Assembly (NCBI GenBank): GCA_944358875.1
Contig: CALVRZ010000002.1
Location: forward strand, 1 to 58,432
Direction: 5' to 3'
Length of the DNA: 58,432 nucleotides
Source: an uncultured Bacilli bacterium
GTDB lineage: Bacteria > Bacillota_I > Bacilli_A > RF39 > UBA660
The notes under the pieces are model-generated. The model was given only the letters and a program-made list of their open reading frames with translations, had not been told where the DNA came from and did no database searches. The translations under genes and the position numbers were made by a program. Positions 14,564-47,400 of the stretch are shown one piece after another. Every line of letters starts with the position of its first letter. Within the stretch, counting starts at the first letter, position 1.

Positions 14564-17212
14564 TTGCAAGAGAGATGGTACTCATATGATAAAGATAAAT
14601 TATATAAAAAATTAGATGTTAATGATAAAGGACTTACGGATAAACAAGTAGAAGAACTTTTAAAAAGAGATGGGTATAATGAATTACCTAGTAAGAAAAG
14701 TGAGAGTATTATTGTTAAGTTTTTTAAACAGCTTTTAAATCCGATTGAAATTCTTTTAGTTATAACTATTATTTTATCTTTAGTTATTGGTGAAATAATT
14801 GATGCAGTAGCAATTATTTTTATTGTTTTAGTGGATTTAGTATTGGGAGTAATTCAGGAATATAAAGCTGAAAAAAGTGCTTTAGCTTTACAGAAAATGA
14901 TTATCGATAAAGTTAAAGTTTGGCGTAACAATGAACAAATAGAAATTCCTTCTAGAAATTTGGTTGTGGGTGATATTATCTTTTTAGAGTCTGGTGATCA
15001 AGTTAATGCTGATGCTAGATTAATCAATTGTGATAATTTACAGGTTAATGAAGCGGTACTTACGGGAGAAAGTTATAATGAATATAAAAATACTGATATT
15101 ATTTTGAAAGAGGTAACATTAGCTGCCGATGTTAAAAATATGGTTTATGCGGGCACTACTGTTATGTCAGGTAGAGGTAAGGCAATCGTGGTTGCAACAG
15201 GTTTAAAGACAGAAATTGGAAAGATTGCTGATTCTGTTAATAGTAAAAAAGATACGAAGACACCACTTACGATTAGGGTTGAAAAGTTTTCAAAACAAAT
15301 TAGTTTGGTTGTTGTAATTGTTGCCTTTATCGTTGCTTTTATTTTAATGTTTAAAAATGTCAGTGGTGATGAAATATTTTTATCAGTCGTAGCTTTGTCA
15401 GTTTCGGCAATGCCGGAAGGATTACCACTTGCTTTGACGTTAGCACTTACGGTTGCTTCTTCTAAAATGGCTAAACAAAATGTTATTGTTAAGAAATTAA
15501 ATGCGGTTGAAACATTAGGTAGTTGTACAGTTATTGCAACGGATAAGACGGGAACTTTGACGGTTAATGAACAGACGGCTAAGAAAGTGATATTACCTGA
15601 TGGGGCTTTATATGATATTGAAGGAACAGGATATAATGATGATGGAGAAATAAAGACAAATGATGATATTGACAGGTTAAAGTTTATTAGTAAATTAGGA
15701 ATTATTAATAATGAGGCAACATTAGAAAAAAATGGTCATGATTTTAAAGCCTTAGGGGATTCAATCGATATTGCTTTTCTAGCTTTAGGATTGAAAGCAA
15801 AAGTTAATAAAGATGATATGAAGGTAATTAAGCAAATTCCTTATGAATCAGAGAATAAGTTTTCGGCTGTCTTTTATGAAATTGATAGTAAAACTTATTG
15901 TACCGTAAAAGGTTCTTTAGAAGTTATTATGAACTATTCTAAATATATGGATAAAAAGGGTAAAAAGAGTAAAATAGATACTGATATATTATTAAAACAA
16001 AATGATGAGTTAGCACAAAGTGGTTATAGAGTAATTGCTCTTGCTAATGGTGTCATGGAAAAGAAAGATAATTATGATATTTCGGATATTAAAGATTTAA
16101 CTTTTATGGGAATGGTAGCCTTTATTGATCCAATTCGTAAAGAAGTTAAACAATCTATTTCAGAATGTCGGGATGCTGGTATTAAAGTTATTATGATTAC
16201 GGGTGATCATCCTTTGACAGGTTATGCTATTGCTCACGATTTAGGTTTAGTAAGTAGTTATAATGAAGTAGCTACTGGTGTTGATGTTAGTGAATATTTA
16301 GCTAAAGGACAAAAGAAGTTTGATGATTTTATTAGAAATAAACGGGTTTTTACTAGAGTGACACCACTTGATAAATTAGAAATTGTTGAATCTTTGAAAA
16401 GACAAGGAGAATTTGTCGCGGTTACGGGTGATGGTGTCAATGATGCACCAGCGATAAAGAGTGCTAATATTGGTGTTGCGATGGGAAGTGGTACGGATGT
16501 TAGTAAAGAAACAGCTTCCATGATTGTTACTGATGATAATTTTAAATCAATTGTCGTCGGTGTCAAAGAAGGAAGAACAGCTTATAGTAATATTAGAAAA
16601 GTAGCTTATATGCTTTTATCTTGTGGTATTGCTGAAGTATTATTCTTTATTTTATCAATTATTTTAGATTTACCAATGCCTTTAGTAGCAGTTCAATTAT
16701 TATGGTTAAATATTGTAACTGATGGTTTACAAGATTTTGCTTTATCTTTTGAGAAGACAGAAAAAAATATTATGAAAGAAAAGCCTAAAGATCCGAAAGA
16801 AGCAATATTTAATAAAAGTTTATTTACAGAAGTTATTATCGCGGGTTTAACGATGGGAATAATAGTATTTATAGTATGGTTCTTCTTAATAGATGTAATG
16901 AAGATGGATGTTGGTTTAGCAAGAGGCTATATTATGGTCCTTATGGTCTTTATGCAAAACGTTCATGTTCTTAATTGTAAGAGTGAAACACAATCAATCT
17001 TTAAAATGAAATTAAGGGAAAATCCTTTAATATTAGTTAGTATTGTCAGTGCAATTGTATTACAAATTATAATTATGGAAGTACCTTTCCTTAGTAGTTT
17101 ACTTCAAACATCAACAGTTCCTATCATGGATATGGTTATTCTCTTTATAATTGCTAGTATTGTTTTATTTGTTATGGAAACTTATAAAATGATTAAATAT
17201 AGGAAAAGTTAG
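14564..17212 (+). CDS. P-type cation-transporting ATPase (Ca2+/P2-type like)
   Basis: It has the phosphorylation site DKTGTLT, the hinge TGDGVNDAPA, and TGES. A TTG start 6 nt after GGAGGTG is likely. Confidence 0.9.
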   Translation: MQERWYSYDKDKLYKKLDVNDKGLTDKQVEELLKRDGYNELPSKKSESIIVKFFKQLLNPIEILLVITIILSLVIGEIIDAVAIIFIVLVDLVLGVIQEYKAEKSALALQKMIIDKVKVWRNNEQIEIPSRNLVVGDIIFLESGDQVNADARLINCDNLQVNEAVLTGESYNEYKNTDIILKEVTLAADVKNMVYAGTTVMSGRGKAIVVATGLKTEIGKIADSVNSKKDTKTPLTIRVEKFSKQISLVVVIVAFIVAFILMFKNVSGDEIFLSVVALSVSAMPEGLPLALTLALTVASSKMAKQNVIVKKLNAVETLGSCTVIATDKTGTLTVNEQTAKKVILPDGALYDIEGTGYNDDGEIKTNDDIDRLKFISKLGIINNEATLEKNGHDFKALGDSIDIAFLALGLKAKVNKDDMKVIKQIPYESENKFSAVFYEIDSKTYCTVKGSLEVIMNYSKYMDKKGKKSKIDTDILLKQNDELAQSGYRVIALANGVMEKKDNYDISDIKDLTFMGMVAFIDPIRKEVKQSISECRDAGIKVIMITGDHPLTGYAIAHDLGLVSSYNEVATGVDVSEYLAKGQKKFDDFIRNKRVFTRVTPLDKLEIVESLKRQGEFVAVTGDGVNDAPAIKSANIGVAMGSGTDVSKETASMIVTDDNFKSIVVGVKEGRTAYSNIRKVAYMLLSCGIAEVLFFILSIILDLPMPLVAVQLLWLNIVTDGLQDFALSFEKTEKNIMKEKPKDPKEAIFNKSLFTEVIIAGLTMGIIVFIVWFFLIDVMKMDVGLARGYIMVLMVFMQNVHVLNCKSETQSIFKMKLRENPLILVSIVSAIVLQIIIMEVPFLSSLLQTSTVPIMDMVILFIIASIVLFVMETYKMIKYRKS

Positions 17213-17292
17213 AATGTTTTAGTTTAAGTTCTACATGATTTAATGAAAATAATGGTCTTGTCAAAGTAGCTATTTTATGATATGATGTATAT

Positions 17293-17402
17293 GTCAAGGA
17301 AACTTGAATACAATAAAAAAGGAACACTTAATTTCGCATGCCTAAGTGTTGCCAAAATAATTTGGTTACCACCTAATTCATGGATGAGTTAGGTGGATTT
17401 TC
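17293..17402 (+). ncRNA. Candidate ~110-nt sRNA, copy 1 (orphan antitoxin-like)
   Basis: The promoter is TTGTCA (17258-63), a 17-nt spacer, then TATGAT (17281-86). A terminator hairpin CCACCTAATTCA/TGAgTTAGGTGG and a T-run follow. It is about 90% identical to copy 2. Confidence 0.5.
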
Positions 17403-17572
17403 ATTATATCAGTACTATTAAGAGGAGTACTAATAAAAAATCTTTAGAAGATTATATAATAAAATATATTGCAAAACAGGTGAACAGTACTAGTTTTTCT
17501 ATAAAAAATTTAGTCAAATATATTGTTGAAAAGGTACTTGTCAAAATGGGATAAATATGATATGATGTATAT

Positions 17573-17682
17573 GTCAAGGAAACTTGCATACAATAAAAAA
17601 GGAACACTTAATTTCGCATGTTGAGTGTCGCCAAAAAATTTAGCACCACCTAATTCATGAGATGAGTTAGGTGGCTTTTATT
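17573..17682 (+). ncRNA. Candidate ~110-nt antisense sRNA, copy 2, convergent with a small hydrophobic-peptide ORF
   Basis: The promoter is TTGTCA (17538-43), a 17-nt spacer, then TATGAT (17561-66). The hairpin at 17647-17675 is followed by CTTTTATTT. Its 3' end abuts the stop codon of the minus-strand ORF. Confidence 0.5.
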
Positions 17683-17765
17683 TATATTAGTACTATTAAG
17701 AGGAGTACTAATAAAAAGAATATTATTATAAGAAGATAAAATATTAAAAAATCTTTCTTACTCAT
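17682..17765 (-). CDS. 27-aa hydrophobic peptide MSKKDFLIFYLLIIIFFLLVLLLIVLI, type I toxin-like
   Basis: A strong SD (GAAGGGAGGG) lies 7 nt upstream of the ATG in an otherwise AT-rich spacer. The minus-strand promoter is TTGTTT, a 17-nt spacer, then TATAAT (about 17840-17868). It shares a bidirectional terminator hairpin with the plus-strand sRNA. Confidence 0.5.
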   Translation of the reverse strand: MSKKDFLIFYLLIIIFFLLVLLLIVLI

Positions 17766-17959
17766 AATACCGCCCTCCCTTCATTAAATAAATTAATAAA
17801 GTAAGGCTCCACCCAACAATTAAATGTTCCTAAGAAGATTATATAATAAAATATATTGTAAAACAAGCGAACAGTTGGAATTTATCTTTAATTTTGTTCT
17901 TTTTAGACTAGTTATTATTATTAAGATATGATAAAATGGGTATAGAAAGTGGTGACATT

Positions 17960-20056
17960 ATGGATTTACAAACATTAAATAATTCACAGTTAGATGCTGT
18001 TAAGCATATAGATGGACCAATGCTCGTTTTAGCAGGAGCTGGTTCAGGAAAGACGAAAGTACTTACTAATAGAATTGCTTATTTAATTGAAAATGGGGTT
18101 AGTCCGGCTTCTATTTTAGCTATTACTTTTACGAATAAAGCTGCTAAAGAAATGAAAGATAGAGTATTTAATTTAATAGGTAATGATGCATATCATATTC
18201 AAATATCAACATTTCACTCTTTAGGACTTAAAATACTTAAAGATAATTATCAATTACTGGGATACGATAAGAATTTTATTATTTTAGATAGTGATGATAC
18301 TTTAACTGTCGTTAAGAAAATTATGAAAGAACATAATATGAGTCCACAGTACTATAATGCTAGAAATATTAGAAATAAGATTAGTAGTGCTAAAAATGAA
18401 CTTATGAGTCCAAGTGATTTTGCTAGATTAGAATTTGATAAACAGATAGTTATGGTTTATGAAGAATATAATAAGATATTAAAAAGAGGTAATTCGGTTG
18501 ATTTTGATGATTTACTTTTATTACCTATTAAATTATTTAATACTTATCCTGAAGTATTAAATAATTATCAAGAAAGATATAAATATGTTTTAATTGATGA
18601 ATATCAGGATACAAATGAAGCTCAATATAAATTTTCTAAGATGTTATGTAAGAAATATCGAAATATCTTTGTTGTAGGAGATAATGATCAAGCTATTTAT
18701 GCTTTTAGAGGGGCTAATTATAAGAATATTCTTAATTTTGAGAAAGATTATCCTGATTGTAAAGTAGTTATGTTAGAAGAGAATTATCGTTCGACTAAGA
18801 TGATATTAAATGCGGCGAATAGTGTTATTAAACATAATAAACTTAGAAAAGATAAGAATTTATGGAGTAATAATGAAGAGGGTAGTAAGATTAAATATGT
18901 TACTTTAGATAATGAGAAAGAAGAAAGTACTTATGTAGCTAGTCATATTAAAGAATTAGTTAATGATGGATGTAAGTATGAAGATATAGCTATATTATAT
19001 CGAACTAATGCTCAGTCCAGAGTTATTGAAGAAGAAATGTTAAAAGCAAATATTCCTTATAAGATTATTGGTAGTTTTTACTTCTATAATAGAAAAGAAA
19101 TTAAAGATTTACTTTGTTATTTAAGACTTATTAATAGTGATAAAGATGATGTTAGTTTACTTAGAGTAATTAATACCCCTAAAAGAGGTATTGGGGCTAA
19201 AACAATTGATAATTTAACAGATAAAGCTAATAGTGATCAATGTTCATTATTTGAAGCTATTAGTGATGGTAAGGAACTTAAGTTTAAAGAAAGTATTTTA
19301 AAGATGAGAGAGAAAGCTGAGAATATGTCTTTAACAGAAATGGTCGATATGGTACTTGATGAAAGTGGTTTAAAAGCAGCATTAGAAGCTGAAAAGACAT
19401 TAGATAGTGAAATTAGATTAGAAAACTTAAATGAATTTAAGTCTATTACTAAGAACTATGAAGATGAATATGGAGTTATTTCTTTAGATGATTTTTTAAA
19501 TGAAATATCTTTAGTTAGTGATGTATCAGAACATCAAGATGGTAATAATAAGGTTAGTTTAATGACAATTCATGCAGTTAAAGGATTAGAATTTGATAAT
19601 GTCTTTGTAATTGGTATGGAAGAAGGTATATTTCCTCATTATAATGCTTTAAATGAAGGAACAAGTAATGCAATTGAAGAAGAGAGAAGATTATGTTATG
19701 TAGCTATTACAAGAGCTAAAAAGAATTTATGGTTATTAAATGCCAAAAGAAGAATGTTATTTGGTAATGTTCAGATGAATCCTCCTAGTAGATTTATGGA
19801 AGAGATCGATGAAAAATATTTAGATGTAGAAAAGAAGACGACTAGTATTATTGATAGAACAAAGAAATTTGTTAAAGAAAATATGCTTAATAATGTCGAT
19901 GTTGATTTTGAAGTAGGAGAAATTATTAAACATACAGAATATGGGGAAGGAGTAGTAGTAGCAGTAGATAAATCTATTATAACCGTTGCTTTTCCTTATC
20001 CTTATGGTACTAAGAAATTAATGAAGAATCATAAGAGTATTTCTAAGATTAGTTAA
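17960..20056 (+). CDS. pcrA: ATP-dependent DNA helicase PcrA/UvrD family
   Basis: It has AGAGSGKT, LIDEYQDTN and NYRS motifs and a C-terminal Tudor-like tail. Confidence 0.92.
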   Translation: MDLQTLNNSQLDAVKHIDGPMLVLAGAGSGKTKVLTNRIAYLIENGVSPASILAITFTNKAAKEMKDRVFNLIGNDAYHIQISTFHSLGLKILKDNYQLLGYDKNFIILDSDDTLTVVKKIMKEHNMSPQYYNARNIRNKISSAKNELMSPSDFARLEFDKQIVMVYEEYNKILKRGNSVDFDDLLLLPIKLFNTYPEVLNNYQERYKYVLIDEYQDTNEAQYKFSKMLCKKYRNIFVVGDNDQAIYAFRGANYKNILNFEKDYPDCKVVMLEENYRSTKMILNAANSVIKHNKLRKDKNLWSNNEEGSKIKYVTLDNEKEESTYVASHIKELVNDGCKYEDIAILYRTNAQSRVIEEEMLKANIPYKIIGSFYFYNRKEIKDLLCYLRLINSDKDDVSLLRVINTPKRGIGAKTIDNLTDKANSDQCSLFEAISDGKELKFKESILKMREKAENMSLTEMVDMVLDESGLKAALEAEKTLDSEIRLENLNEFKSITKNYEDEYGVISLDDFLNEISLVSDVSEHQDGNNKVSLMTIHAVKGLEFDNVFVIGMEEGIFPHYNALNEGTSNAIEEERRLCYVAITRAKKNLWLLNAKRRMLFGNVQMNPPSRFMEEIDEKYLDVEKKTTSIIDRTKKFVKENMLNNVDVDFEVGEIIKHTEYGEGVVVAVDKSIITVAFPYPYGTKKLMKNHKSISKIS

Positions 20057-44463: not shown

Positions 44464-47400
44464 TTTAAGTATGATAAGTGAAAATGATAACTCTACGGTA
44501 TTAACAGAATATAAGGGATTAAATAAAACAGAAACTTTTTATCAAAGTGAGGATGCTTTAGAAAAAGAATTAATTAATACTTTAGTAAATCAAGGATATG
44601 AATATGTAACTATTAATAGTGAAAAAGAATTTATTTTAAATTTAAGAAAACAGTTAGAAAAATTAAATCGCTATCATTTTACTGATGGAGAATGGGATGC
44701 GTTTTTTATTAATGTTATTGCTAATAAAAATAATCATATTATTGAAAAAACAAGATTAATTCAAGAAGATTATATTCAATCTATCACTTTGGATAATGGT
44801 AGTTTGAAAAATATTTATTTAATTGATAAAAATAATATTCATAATAATAGTGTTCAAGTTATTAATCAATATGTAAATAATGATGGAACTTATGATAATA
44901 GATATGATGTTACTATTCTAATTAATGGACTGCCTTTAGTTCATTGTGAATTAAAAAGAAGGGGTATTGATTTAAGAGAAGCTTTTAATCAGATAGAAAG
45001 ATATCAAAGAGATTCTTTTTGGGCTAGCAGTGGACTATATGAATTTGTTCAAATATTTATAATTAGTAATGGTACTTTGACTAAGTATTATTCTAATACT
45101 ACAAGAGAGTTTCATATTAATAATAAAACTAAAAGAAAATCTAATTCATTTGAATTTACTTCGTTTTGGGCAGATCAAAAAAATAACAGTATAACTGATT
45201 TAATAGATTTTGCGAAAACATTTTTAACTAAACATACTTTGTTAAATATTTTAACAAAATACTGTGTATTTACTTCTGAAGAAGATTTATTAGTTATGAG
45301 GCCTTATCAAATAGTTGCTACGGAAAAGATATTAAATAAAATAAATGTTTCTTATAATAATAAACTATATGGAACTATTAAATCAGGTGGATATATTTGG
45401 CATACTACAGGTTCTGGTAAAACTTTAACTTCTTTTAAGACTTCTATTTTAGCTAGTAAATTAGAATTTATTGATAAAGTATTATTTGTTGTTGATAGAA
45501 AAGATTTAGATTATCAAACAATGAAAGAATATGATAGATTTAAAGAAGGATGTGCAAATAGTAATTCAAGTACTAAAGTTTTAGAAAGTCAATTAAATGA
45601 TACTAATGCTAAGATAATTATTACAACTATTCAAAAACTTTCTGGTTTTATTAAGAAAAATACTGGAACAGAAGTTTTTAATAAAAATGTTGTCTTTATA
45701 TTTGATGAATGTCATAGATCACAATTCGGTGAGATGCATAAAGCAATTATAAAAAAATTTAAAAAGTATTATATTTTTGGATTTACAGGAACACCAATAT
45801 TTCCAGAAAATGCTAGAACGGTAAAAGGTATATCTGAAACAACAGAACAAATATTTGGTGATAGATTACATACTTATACAATTGTTAATGCTATTGCTGA
45901 TAAAAATGTTTTACCATTTAGATATGAATATGTAGGTAGAGTAGATGTTAAACATGATGTAAAAGATGAAAAAGTATATTCTATTGATGAAGATAAGACT
46001 TTTGATAATAAAATTAGAATATCTTTAATTACAGATTATATAATTAAACATTTTAGTACTAAAACAAAAACTAATGAGTCCTATGTTTTCTCTACACTGG
46101 ATAATGTAGTTGAAGTGGCTAAAAAAAGAGATACTAAAGAAAATAAAACAAAGAAAAATATTAATGGATTTAATTCAATATTTGCTGTTGGAAATATAAA
46201 AATGGCTAAAGAGTATTATGAAGAATTTAAAGAGCAACAATGTCAATTAAAAACTAATTTAAAAGTAGCTTTAATATATTCTTATGGAGTTAATGGTGAA
46301 GATGGGATAATTGATGAAAATTCTGAAACAACTGAAGCATTAAGTACTGATGATAGAAGATTCTTAGATGCTGCTATTAAAGATTATAATAAAATGTTTG
46401 GTACTTCTTATGATACGTCATCTGATAGATTTCAAAATTATTATAGAGATGTTTCTCTAAGAATGAAAAATAGAGAAATTGATATATTAATTGTTGTTAA
46501 TATGTTTTTGACTGGTTTTGATGCTAAAACATTAAATACTTTATGGGTTGATAAAAATTTAAAATGGCATGGTTTAATACAGGCTTTTTCTAGAACAAAT
46601 AGAATACTAAATAGTGTTAAAACTTATGGAAATATTGTTTCATTTAGAAATCTAGAAAGTAGATTAAATGAGTCTTTAGCAAAATTTGGTGATGAAAATG
46701 CAAGAGGTATAGTTTTATTAAAACCATATGAAGATTATTTCTATGGTTATGAAGATGAAAATGGTAAAAACTTTGAAGGATATGAATCATTAATACAAAA
46801 AATGAAAGATTTATTTATTCCTGGAGAATTACCACAGAGTGAAAGTAAACAAAAGGAGTATATAAAATTATATGGTCAAATATTAAGAGTTACAAATATT
46901 TTATCTTCTTTTGACCAATTTAAAAATGAAGAATTACTTAGCGAAAGAGATAAACAAGATTATCAGGGTATATATATTTCTCTTTATAATGAATTTAGAA
47001 ATAAAGCTAAGCATGAGAAAAAAGATATTACTGATGATATTGTTTTTGAAATGGAATTAATTCGAGCAATAGAAGTAAATATTGATTATATTTTAGGACT
47101 TGTAAAAAAATATCATGAAAGTAATATGCAAGATAAAGAAGTACTCGTTACAATTAATAAAACTATTATGGCAAGTCCAGATTTAAGAAATAAAAAAGAT
47201 TTAATATTAGCATTTATTAATTCATTAGATGTCAATTCTGATGTTTATTCTGATTTTGAGAAATTTATGAACAGTAAAAAGAAAGAAGAACTAGATAAAA
47301 TAATTAAAGAAGAGAATTTAAATAGGGATAAAACATATAATTTGGTTAGAAAATCCTTTGAACAAGGTAAAGTTGATACAAACGGCACAGAAATATCTGA

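Follow-up and report, generated by a model that had tools for sequence, protein, structure and literature searches.

The 724-nt spacer between a P-type cation ATPase gene, whose open reading frame (ORF) ends at 17212, and pcrA in an uncultured Bacilli bacterium (GenBank assembly GCA_944358875.1) contains two tandem units of an apparently undescribed family of small RNA-regulated genes. The window analyzed is a stretch of 58,432 nucleotides, positions 1 to 58,432 of contig CALVRZ010000002.1, and coordinates given without a contig label refer to it. The reading that one of these units is an intact, and the other an orphan-antitoxin, member of a type I toxin-antitoxin-like family with bsrG/SR4-type architecture is well supported. 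That the module actually works as a type I toxin-antitoxin pair is a further step, which we consider probable though well short of certain. An initial annotation, made by inspection of the sequence, had proposed an unannotated type I toxin-antitoxin-like module with a convergent cis-antisense small RNA (sRNA) at this place, and comparison with paralogues and orthologues bears the proposal out. The anatomy of the units, the coding signature of the peptide, the covariation in the RNA, the multi-copy status and the distribution were all observed or computed here.

The two tandem units, described as about 90% identical, that had been placed at 17257-17880 are recovered both as direct repeats (17238-17340 against 17518-17620, 83%; 17383-17439 against 17661-17717, 93%) and by BLAST of their sRNA parts (17276-17412 against 17556-17690, 89.9% over 138 nt). 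As the initial annotation stated, each unit carries on the plus strand a promoter of the form TTGTCA, 17-nt spacer, TATGAT, followed by a hairpin terminator. Both promoters have an upstream TG. Two terminator-like sites were found, one per unit, where 0.3 would be expected by chance; each is a plus-strand hairpin of 12-13 bp and then a T-run. The minus-strand ORF of 27 codons in unit 2 likewise stands as described, with its Shine-Dalgarno (SD) sequence GGGAGGG at a distance of 7 nt and its own promoter, TTGTTT, 17-nt spacer, TATAAT. The features of both units are collected in Table 1.

Table 1. Features of the two units in the ATPase-pcrA spacer (positions in the window; SL, stem-loop of the sRNA; H, hairpin of the toxin mRNA; UTR, untranslated region)
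Feature	Position	Strand	Remarks
Promoter of sRNA copy 1	17258..17286	+	TTGTCA, 17-nt spacer, TG-extended TATGAT
sRNA copy 1, orphan	17293..17406	+	SL1 17295-17306, A-run 17315-17320, SL2 17321-17353, SL3 terminator 17369-17396, U-tract
Remnant of unit-1 toxin ORF	17404..17439	-	about the last 12 codons and stop; from alignment, the retained part being covered by repeat D3
Remnant of unit-1 toxin promoter	17451..17479	-	-10 TATAAT retained, -35 weakened to CTGTTT; from repeats D2 and D4 and alignment
Promoter of sRNA copy 2	17538..17566	+	TTGTCA, 17-nt spacer, TG-extended TATGAT
sRNA copy 2, predicted antitoxin, ~113 nt	17573..17686	+	SL1 17575-17586, A-rich linker 17590-17600, SL2 17601-17632, SL3 terminator 17646-17674, U-tract
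Predicted toxin mRNA, ~238 nt	17594..17831	-	start 7 nt after the -10 box, end at the U-run
Closing helix, 3' arm	17600..17627	-	antisense of sRNA SL2; U6 directly after
Shared hairpin	17646..17674	both	plus strand: terminator SL3 of the sRNA; minus strand: H1, a hairpin inside the toxin mRNA 3' UTR
Toxin ORF, 27 aa	17682..17765	-	MSKKDFLIFYLLIIIFFLLVLLLIVLI
SD GGGAGGG	17773..17779	-	7 nt before ATG; predicted to be paired by anti-SD GCCUU...C, mRNA nt 25-31
Closing helix, 5' arm	17810..17831	-	equivalent of bsrG helix P1; near-identical to the 5' part of sRNA SL2
Toxin promoter	17838..17866	-	TTGTTT, 17-nt spacer, TATAAT; kept in paralogues

The element is far from confined to this spacer. 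The genome, a 1.31-Mb assembly of 56 contigs (labelled C1, C2 and so on) with 28.7% G+C, holds the unit on C1, C2, C4, C7, C9, C13, C19, C21, C23, C30, C36 and C49, and its recurrence about 19 times in this genome, at E-values down to 1e-109, shows that the unit is not a product of chance. The approximately 19 copies, of which about six sRNA cores lack a toxin ORF, amount to some 0.5% of the genome. A six-frame census of the genome yields 13 intact small ORFs, each with a strong SD, and the intact units fall into four or five sequence classes, recognizable from the peptides: MSKKDFLI (C2, C7, C30), MHKKDFLI and MKKKDLLI (C36, C19), MTKREIS (C9, C21, C23) and MSKRELY (C1). Despite heavy sequence divergence, an alignment of 13 units in toxin orientation has an invariant layout: promoter; 5' UTR; anti-SD and SD; an ORF of 24-29 codons; H1; spacer; H2 followed by CC-TTTTTT-AT; the antisense of a short hairpin; and the antisense of a -10 box. 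Tandem arrays are found on C9 (three units) and on C23, C30 and C2 (two units each). As a side observation, the arrays at C9:26030-27130, C23:13210-13950, C30:8930-9720 and C1:46250-48860 comprise two or three units at a spacing of about 365 nt; and at C1 a promoterless sRNA fragment adjoins an intact unit, positions 46279-46312 and 46611-46644 sharing a 34-nt exact repeat, TCACATAATCAAATGTATCCTTTTTTATGAGGCG. The fragment has the appearance of a partial duplication or of a scar left by recombination.

Unit 1 of the window is one such decayed copy. The initial annotation had described it as an orphan antitoxin lacking the toxin start, SD and 5' half through two deletions. The loss, and the status of orphan antitoxin copy, are borne out by comparison with paralogues and orthologues, but alignment against unit 2 and the paralogues C30a and C7 shows a single gap of about 109 nt in unit 1. 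This gap takes out the toxin 5' UTR, the anti-SD, the SD, the start codon and roughly the first 14 codons, and leaves the sRNA gene, the last 12 or so toxin codons and a weakened toxin promoter. The sRNA of unit 1 could still act on the mRNA of unit 2, because the SL3 stems of the two units are identical. Orphan sRNAs and broken toxin genes are both present in the genome, and we regard decay of this sort as typical of toxin-antitoxin loci.

The peptide of the window has an MSKKD head followed by a single hydrophobic helix, and the family follows the same plan (MxKKDFLI plus hydrophobic helix): members have 24-29 residues, with an MxKKD or MTKRE head and then about 20 Leu, Ile, Val and Phe residues. 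The consensus, MNKKDFLILSLVIIIFLLLFLLFIVLI, has no Pro, no Gly and no charged tail. In size and in its predicted membrane helix the peptide is what is expected of a type I toxin (<60 aa). Among sRNA-anchored sites in other species, 125 have enough flanking sequence to be judged, and 96 of these carry a convergent small hydrophobic ORF; inspected by eye, about 90 of the 96 belong to the MxKKD family and have a strong GGAGG-type SD. The ORF stays in frame in other genera (e.g. MNKKDFLILSLIIIIFLLVLVLLLFIVLI, MKKKDILISSLIIIIFLLLFLLFIVLI, MSKKDLLILSLLSIILLLIVLLFVILK) at DNA identities of 67-79%, and it is exactly 27 codons long in 71 of 92 units. Conservation in related genomes had been named as a check on the ORF, and frame, length and SD are all retained. 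In 62 distinct 27-codon ORFs the entropies at codon positions 1, 2 and 3 are 0.82, 0.32 and 1.01, figures that are partly circular because ORF selection required hydrophobicity, while the periodicity and the fixed length are not. Such a codon-position pattern is what conservation of a hydrophobic helix produces, the second base remaining T. Searches of Pfam and NCBIfam with hmmscan, using five family peptides and E-values up to 10, return only chance-level matches to unrelated transmembrane segments; eight exact peptide variants, that of the window included, are absent from a collection of 15 billion proteins; and the peptide gene is truly unannotated. A small side feature of the ORF is an 8-bp hairpin within its 3' half (TTAGTACT..AGTACTAA, window 17688-17712 on the minus strand, about codons 18-26), which has a counterpart of other sequence (CTATTGTT..AACAATAG) at the corresponding place in paralogues C30a and C7.

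Outside this genome, a sample of 151 genomes from the order gives sRNA matches at E <= 1e-8 in 72, covering 46 of 87 genera, and all 72 belong to the window genome's own family. By BLAST, the unit occurs in many genera of this one family of small-genome metagenome-assembled genomes (MAGs), often with at least 10 matches per genome, and a degenerate sRNA pattern picks out at least 119 stretches in species-representative genomes. The matches listed come from uncultured gut Bacilli of rabbit, goat, deer, chicken and human; among them are Coprobacillus sp. CAG:605, Mycoplasma sp. CAG:877 and Candidatus Coprosoma intestinipullorum, the last of which is assigned to GTDB order RF39, family CAG-822 (PMC8035907). 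An identical locus lies on one ENA metagenome contig. A full-text literature search returned no paper linking type I systems to RF39, RFN20 or CAG-type Bacilli.

Copy number and distribution bear on what the peptide might be if it is not a toxin. An sRNA of this kind might simply tune a non-toxic small membrane protein, such as a regulator or stabilizer of a membrane complex. The peptide is indeed a simple transmembrane helix, lacking the charged tail that many type I toxins have, its SD is strongly sequestered in every predicted state, and the window copy adjoins a P-type ATPase gene, small single-helix peptides being known partners of P-type pumps. The adjacency does not generalize, however: the 13 intact copies, in four or five classes, adjoin unrelated genes on nine contigs, with no conserved neighbor, and they are accompanied by decayed copies, by tandem arrays and by patchy presence across genomes and genera. 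We read copy number, arrays and patchiness as the pattern of selfish or addictive modules rather than that of a housekeeping subunit, and regard the small-membrane-protein explanation as improbable.

Much less probable still is that the unit is mainly a repeat at the RNA or DNA level, a cassette between genes that moves or recombines and supplies promoters and terminators, with the ORF incidental. Such a cassette would suit an element that occurs in many copies between genes, often in tandem and frequently at the ends of contigs, and whose plus-strand hairpins are apparently the sole terminators downstream of the ATPase gene. It sits badly with an ORF that has retained its length, frame, start and SD in classes diverged to about 67% DNA identity, and whose variation follows codon position. 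Flanking direct repeats of at least 10 nt were found neither around the window array nor around most other copies, and phage, plasmid and IMG/VR collections contain no match to the module. Relatives offer no empty site for comparison, since ATPase-pcrA synteny is lost in them: there is no pcrA match in the same-genus genome, and in other genera pcrA follows a different gene.

The extended -10 of the sRNA promoter is kept across genera, and in 83 of 90 units the -10 box has a score of 5 or more out of 6. The predicted fold runs SL1, A-rich linker, SL2, second linker and terminator SL3, and for sRNA copy 2 it reaches a minimum free energy (MFE) of -31.2 kcal/mol (z = -4.3). In 35 diverse sRNA sequences from many genera, the positions of SL2 and SL3 are paired in 92.4% of cases, a figure that drops to 33-44% once the partners are shifted by 1-3 columns; compensatory double changes occur at 14 of the 22 SL2/SL3 pairs, and none of 500 shuffles attains the observed values. 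SL1 too comes in several compensating stem variants (CAAG/CTTG, TGAAG/CTTCA, TGAGA/TCTCA, GCAGG/CCTGC, TGAGG/CCTCA). A 36-codon frame can be read in sRNA copy 1, but in copy 2 it contains two stops, in agreement with the non-coding function originally proposed. Rfam was scanned for an unrelated cis-regulatory RNA family to which the sRNA might belong; no family matched at the gathering threshold or with E-values allowed up to 10, the best match, to ctRNA_pT181, reaching 22 bits where the gathering score is 56 (E = 3).

In BLAST comparisons across genera, the 5' part of the sRNA is the best-conserved stretch. The T5-7 run that would end the toxin transcript is the antisense of the invariant AAAAAAGG of the sRNA, and its being encoded opposite the A-run explains why no other part of the sRNA gene is conserved so well. 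It is most unlikely that the sRNAs are the main product, acting in trans, with the peptide mRNA as sponge or partner instead of a toxin message: 19 sRNA copies against 13 intact toxin genes, the many sRNA-anchored sites without an ORF in other species and the conserved 5' part could all be taken that way, but the conservation of the A-run and SL2 is explained by what lies opposite them, the U-run and the 3' arm of the helix that closes the mRNA.

Two observations on individual sRNAs may be added. Terminator stems differ by class (CCACCTAA, GCATCTGA, GTACTCAA, GCACCTGA), and this difference suggests four or five antitoxin specificity groups without cross-reaction within one genome. Separately, toxin-linked sRNAs have the SL2 3' arm GTTGAGTG, and the orphan copy 1 of the window has GCCTAAGTG; in all, four orphan sRNAs (window 17321-17353; C1:80827; C4:53595; C49:751) carry GCCTAAGTG or GCTTAAGTG. 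These four come from two sequence classes, and the change replaces G.U wobbles with Watson-Crick pairs. It may reflect relaxed constraint after loss of the toxin mRNA, or mark a separate orphan class; the Watson-Crick-optimized arm holds for these four orphans of one genome, the sample from other species being small and biased by the search pattern.

The ends of the toxin mRNA are predicted from its promoter and from the T-run, both of which are conserved in a set of 91 non-redundant units. The toxin -10 is TATAAT in 52 of the 91 and matches at no fewer than 5 of 6 positions in 77. It had been suggested that the hairpin at the end of the sRNA is a shared bidirectional terminator, followed by T-runs on both strands. 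This cannot be sustained: at least 6 T within 10 nt of the hairpin are found on the sRNA strand in 71 of 91 units and on the toxin strand in 0 of 91, so the SL3/H1 hairpin is not bidirectional, and the toxin mRNA is predicted to read through it. The two RNAs would indeed overlap at their 3' ends, as the initial annotation held, but the predicted overlap is not confined to the terminator hairpin. Because the T5-7 run ending the toxin transcript, directly after ...GUGUUCC, sits inside the sRNA gene (17595-17600 for sRNA-2), the overlap should extend to about 90 nt and take in all of the sRNA except its 5' hairpin SL1. As type I systems require of an antisense partner, the sRNA gene is convergent with the toxin gene, and by position it would be complementary to the mRNA over this length.

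In the predicted mRNA, a long helix closes the molecule end to end. The fold of the whole transcript has an MFE of -79.1 kcal/mol, against -41.7 +/- 3.9 kcal/mol for shuffles (z = -9.7). In all 13 copies of this genome the first 22-29 nt are predicted to pair with the last nucleotides before the U-run, and a helix of 20-31 bp (mean 26) is predicted for 91 of the 91 non-redundant units. In most of these, 6-8 nt separate the toxin -10 box from the start of the helix, and in 88 the helix ends with CC immediately before T5-7, with 0 nt between. Cognate 5' and 3' arms form duplexes of -31 kcal/mol on average, as opposed to -15 for shuffled partners. Within the genome the duplex matrix is block-diagonal by class, with values of -31 to -38 within classes and -9 to -24 between them, and most positions of the helix display several compensatory pair types. 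The case for this helix is thus one of modelled structure plus covariation. Because SL2 is antisense to the 3' arm of the helix, it is near-identical in sequence to the mRNA 5' end, and sRNA and mRNA 5' end should therefore compete for one partner. On the sRNA strand SL2 is stable (-12.1 kcal/mol), whereas the corresponding mRNA hairpin H2 is weak (-4.8), because each G.U pair of SL2 corresponds to an A.C mismatch on the opposite strand. Further inside the mRNA, SD and AUG appear buried by the local anti-SD hairpin and the coding sequence, with a mean unpaired probability of 0.23.

A mechanism modelled on bsrG/SR4 and txpA/RatA can be put together from these parts, in which transcription, toxicity, neutralization and the involvement of RNase III are what we infer. 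The minus-strand sigma-A-type promoter (17866-17838) would give an mRNA of about 238 nt, from 17831 to about 17594, whose first 22 nt would pair with the last nucleotides before U6 and so close the whole RNA, while the anti-SD hairpin would bury the SD and the AUG would be buried too. From the plus-strand promoter at 17538-17566 would come the three-hairpin sRNA of about 113 nt. Of its hairpins, SL1 lacks complementarity to the mRNA, SL2 is the antisense counterpart of the closing helix's 3' arm, and SL3 that of the hairpin just past the stop codon. The sRNA might meet the mRNA through the complementary loops of SL3 and H1, the probable loop-loop contact site, and the duplex might then extend over the roughly 90 nt of overlap. 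This would strip the mRNA 5' end from its 3' partner and create a substrate for RNase III, and the toxin mRNA would be degraded, no peptide being made as long as sRNA is replenished. The genome encodes RNase III (rnc) and two RNase J paralogues, so that the presumed route of decay is available.

Several points weigh against a working type I pair. Promoters, RNA ends and overlap are all predictions from sequence. The 3' end of the mRNA is uncertain because, on the toxin strand, the local hairpin that precedes its U-run has little stability (mean -4.8 kcal/mol), and in the window copy a T6 on the toxin strand begins 8 nt past the H1 stem and could cause some early termination, giving a minor shorter species. 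The peptide has neither a charged C-terminal tail nor the PXXXG motif of Fst, both common in characterized Gram-positive type I toxins (PMC7472228, PMC8309996). Finally, blocking the mRNA 3' region leaves predicted SD accessibility unchanged (0.233 versus 0.242), so a second, SR4-like effect on translation is unsupported. For that reason a hok-like or SR4-like switch of SD accessibility was rejected as a supported mechanism.

One variant of the scheme deserves mention, although we think it rather unlikely. The closing helix may itself be the intrinsic terminator stem of the toxin transcript, with SL2 of the sRNA mimicking the mRNA 5' end, blocking this protective, terminating helix and exposing the 5' end to RNase J. 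The G/C base abutting T5-7 in 88 of 91 units fits a terminator stem of this kind, as does the strand-specific effect of the G.U pairs, which leaves the local hairpin at -4.8 kcal/mol on the toxin strand and -12.1 on the sRNA strand. If so, correct termination would require that the 5' end of the same transcript be available for pairing, and capture of the 3' arm by SL2, on a nascent or a finished transcript, would couple termination, stability and silencing in a single pairing.

The family is abundant in uncultured gut Bacilli of the RF39 type, which have reduced genomes of 0.8-1.5 Mb. Its units can be annotated as small-gene pairs, and they explain many of the structured but "empty" spacers in the MAGs of this group. 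Moreover, the mutually non-complementary classes, four or five in one genome, form a natural data set of co-evolving RNA-RNA partners.

The flanking genes of the window offer two side observations. No terminator-like site occurs between the ATPase ORF end at 17212 and SL3 of sRNA copy 1 (17369-17396); in the absence of any earlier site, ATPase transcripts may cross all of the sRNA-1 sequence and end at its terminator. At the other flank, the in-frame ATG at 17960 is a likelier start for pcrA than the one listed, at 17936. An SD, AAAGTGGTGA, lies 6 nt upstream of ATG 17960; the listed ATG is 3 nt after a promoter-like -10 (17927-17932); and alignments to pcrA orthologues begin only at residue 8-12.

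Of the three systems with which the module was originally likened, bsrG/SR4 proves the best comparison and fst/RNA II the poorest, the module having no DRa/DRb-type complementary 5' regions; hok/Sok may be added to the list. In hok/Sok and, grouped with it, aapA1/IsoA1 of Helicobacter pylori, the antisense RNA binds the 5' region of the (3'-)processed toxin mRNA. In the module, by contrast, the antisense is complementary to the 3' arm, and no processing-dependent opening of the SD is predicted. What is shared with hok/Sok is the long-distance 5'-3' interaction (tac/fbi) that closes and stabilizes the full-length toxin mRNA and keeps it untranslated (PMC9841398).

The fst/RNA II system (par of pAD1, Fst/Ldr family) resembles the module in its convergent promoters, in complementary terminator stem-loops that are the likely first contact, and in having the extreme 5' end of the toxin RNA in an intramolecular helix and the SD in a stem-loop (PMC7472228). 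It differs in its bidirectional terminator, seen in 0 of 91 module units, and in its DRa/DRb repeats. In the module, the 5' UTR and SL2 form an inverted repeat in the DNA and are of the same sense in the two RNAs, so the sRNA cannot cover the toxin translation start. Fst also has PXXXG and a charged tail; the module peptide has neither, and no Fst-family model matches it. TxpA of Bacillus subtilis is about twice as long as the module peptide, and there is no homology between the two systems. The txpA/RatA pair is nevertheless similar in its 3'-overlapping cis-antisense RNA and in the RNase III-dependent decay expected of the toxin mRNA (PMC3531473).

With bsrG/SR4, found on the SPbeta prophage of Bacillus subtilis and taken here together with the related bsrE/SR5 and bsrH/as-bsrH, there are several differences. 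Neither peptide nor RNA of the module has detectable similarity to families in the protein and RNA libraries, and the hmmscan searches of Pfam and NCBIfam gave no homology of the peptide to BsrG, BsrE or BsrH. The peptide has 38 residues in BsrG and 24-29 here, the sRNA about 183 nt as opposed to about 113, and the overlap of about 90 nt in the module is a further difference. The bsrG mRNA has a separate terminator stem-loop after helix P1, where the module has its U-run directly after the closing helix (88 of 91 units); the extension of the SD helix known for SR4 is not predicted here; and bsrG lies on a prophage, whereas the module is chromosomal, with many copies per genome.

The design nonetheless agrees point by point with that of bsrG/SR4, which was determined by experiment. 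In bsrG mRNA, nt 1-35 pair with nt 232-262 to form helix P1, and the SD lies in a short helix; the first hairpin of SR4 is not complementary to the mRNA, and the rest is antisense to SL3, to P1's 3' half and to the terminator, binding beginning at the terminator loop and leaving bsrG nt 1-33 single-stranded (PMC3834814). The bsrG/SR4 duplex is then degraded by RNase III (PMC8309996). In the module the two genes are again convergent, with RNAs overlapping at their 3' ends; a long 5'-3' helix is again predicted to close the toxin mRNA, and the antitoxin to be antisense to its 3' half; the first antitoxin hairpin is again not complementary to the mRNA, and the later ones are antisense to the counterpart of the 3' half of P1 and to the stop-codon hairpin; and the SD is again in a local double strand, ahead of a small single-helix peptide. 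The bsrG/SR4 design, in which the antitoxin targets the 3' arm of a closing helix, thus occurs a second time in an unrelated system, and this suggests that the design is a general solution and not a peculiarity of Bacillus prophages.

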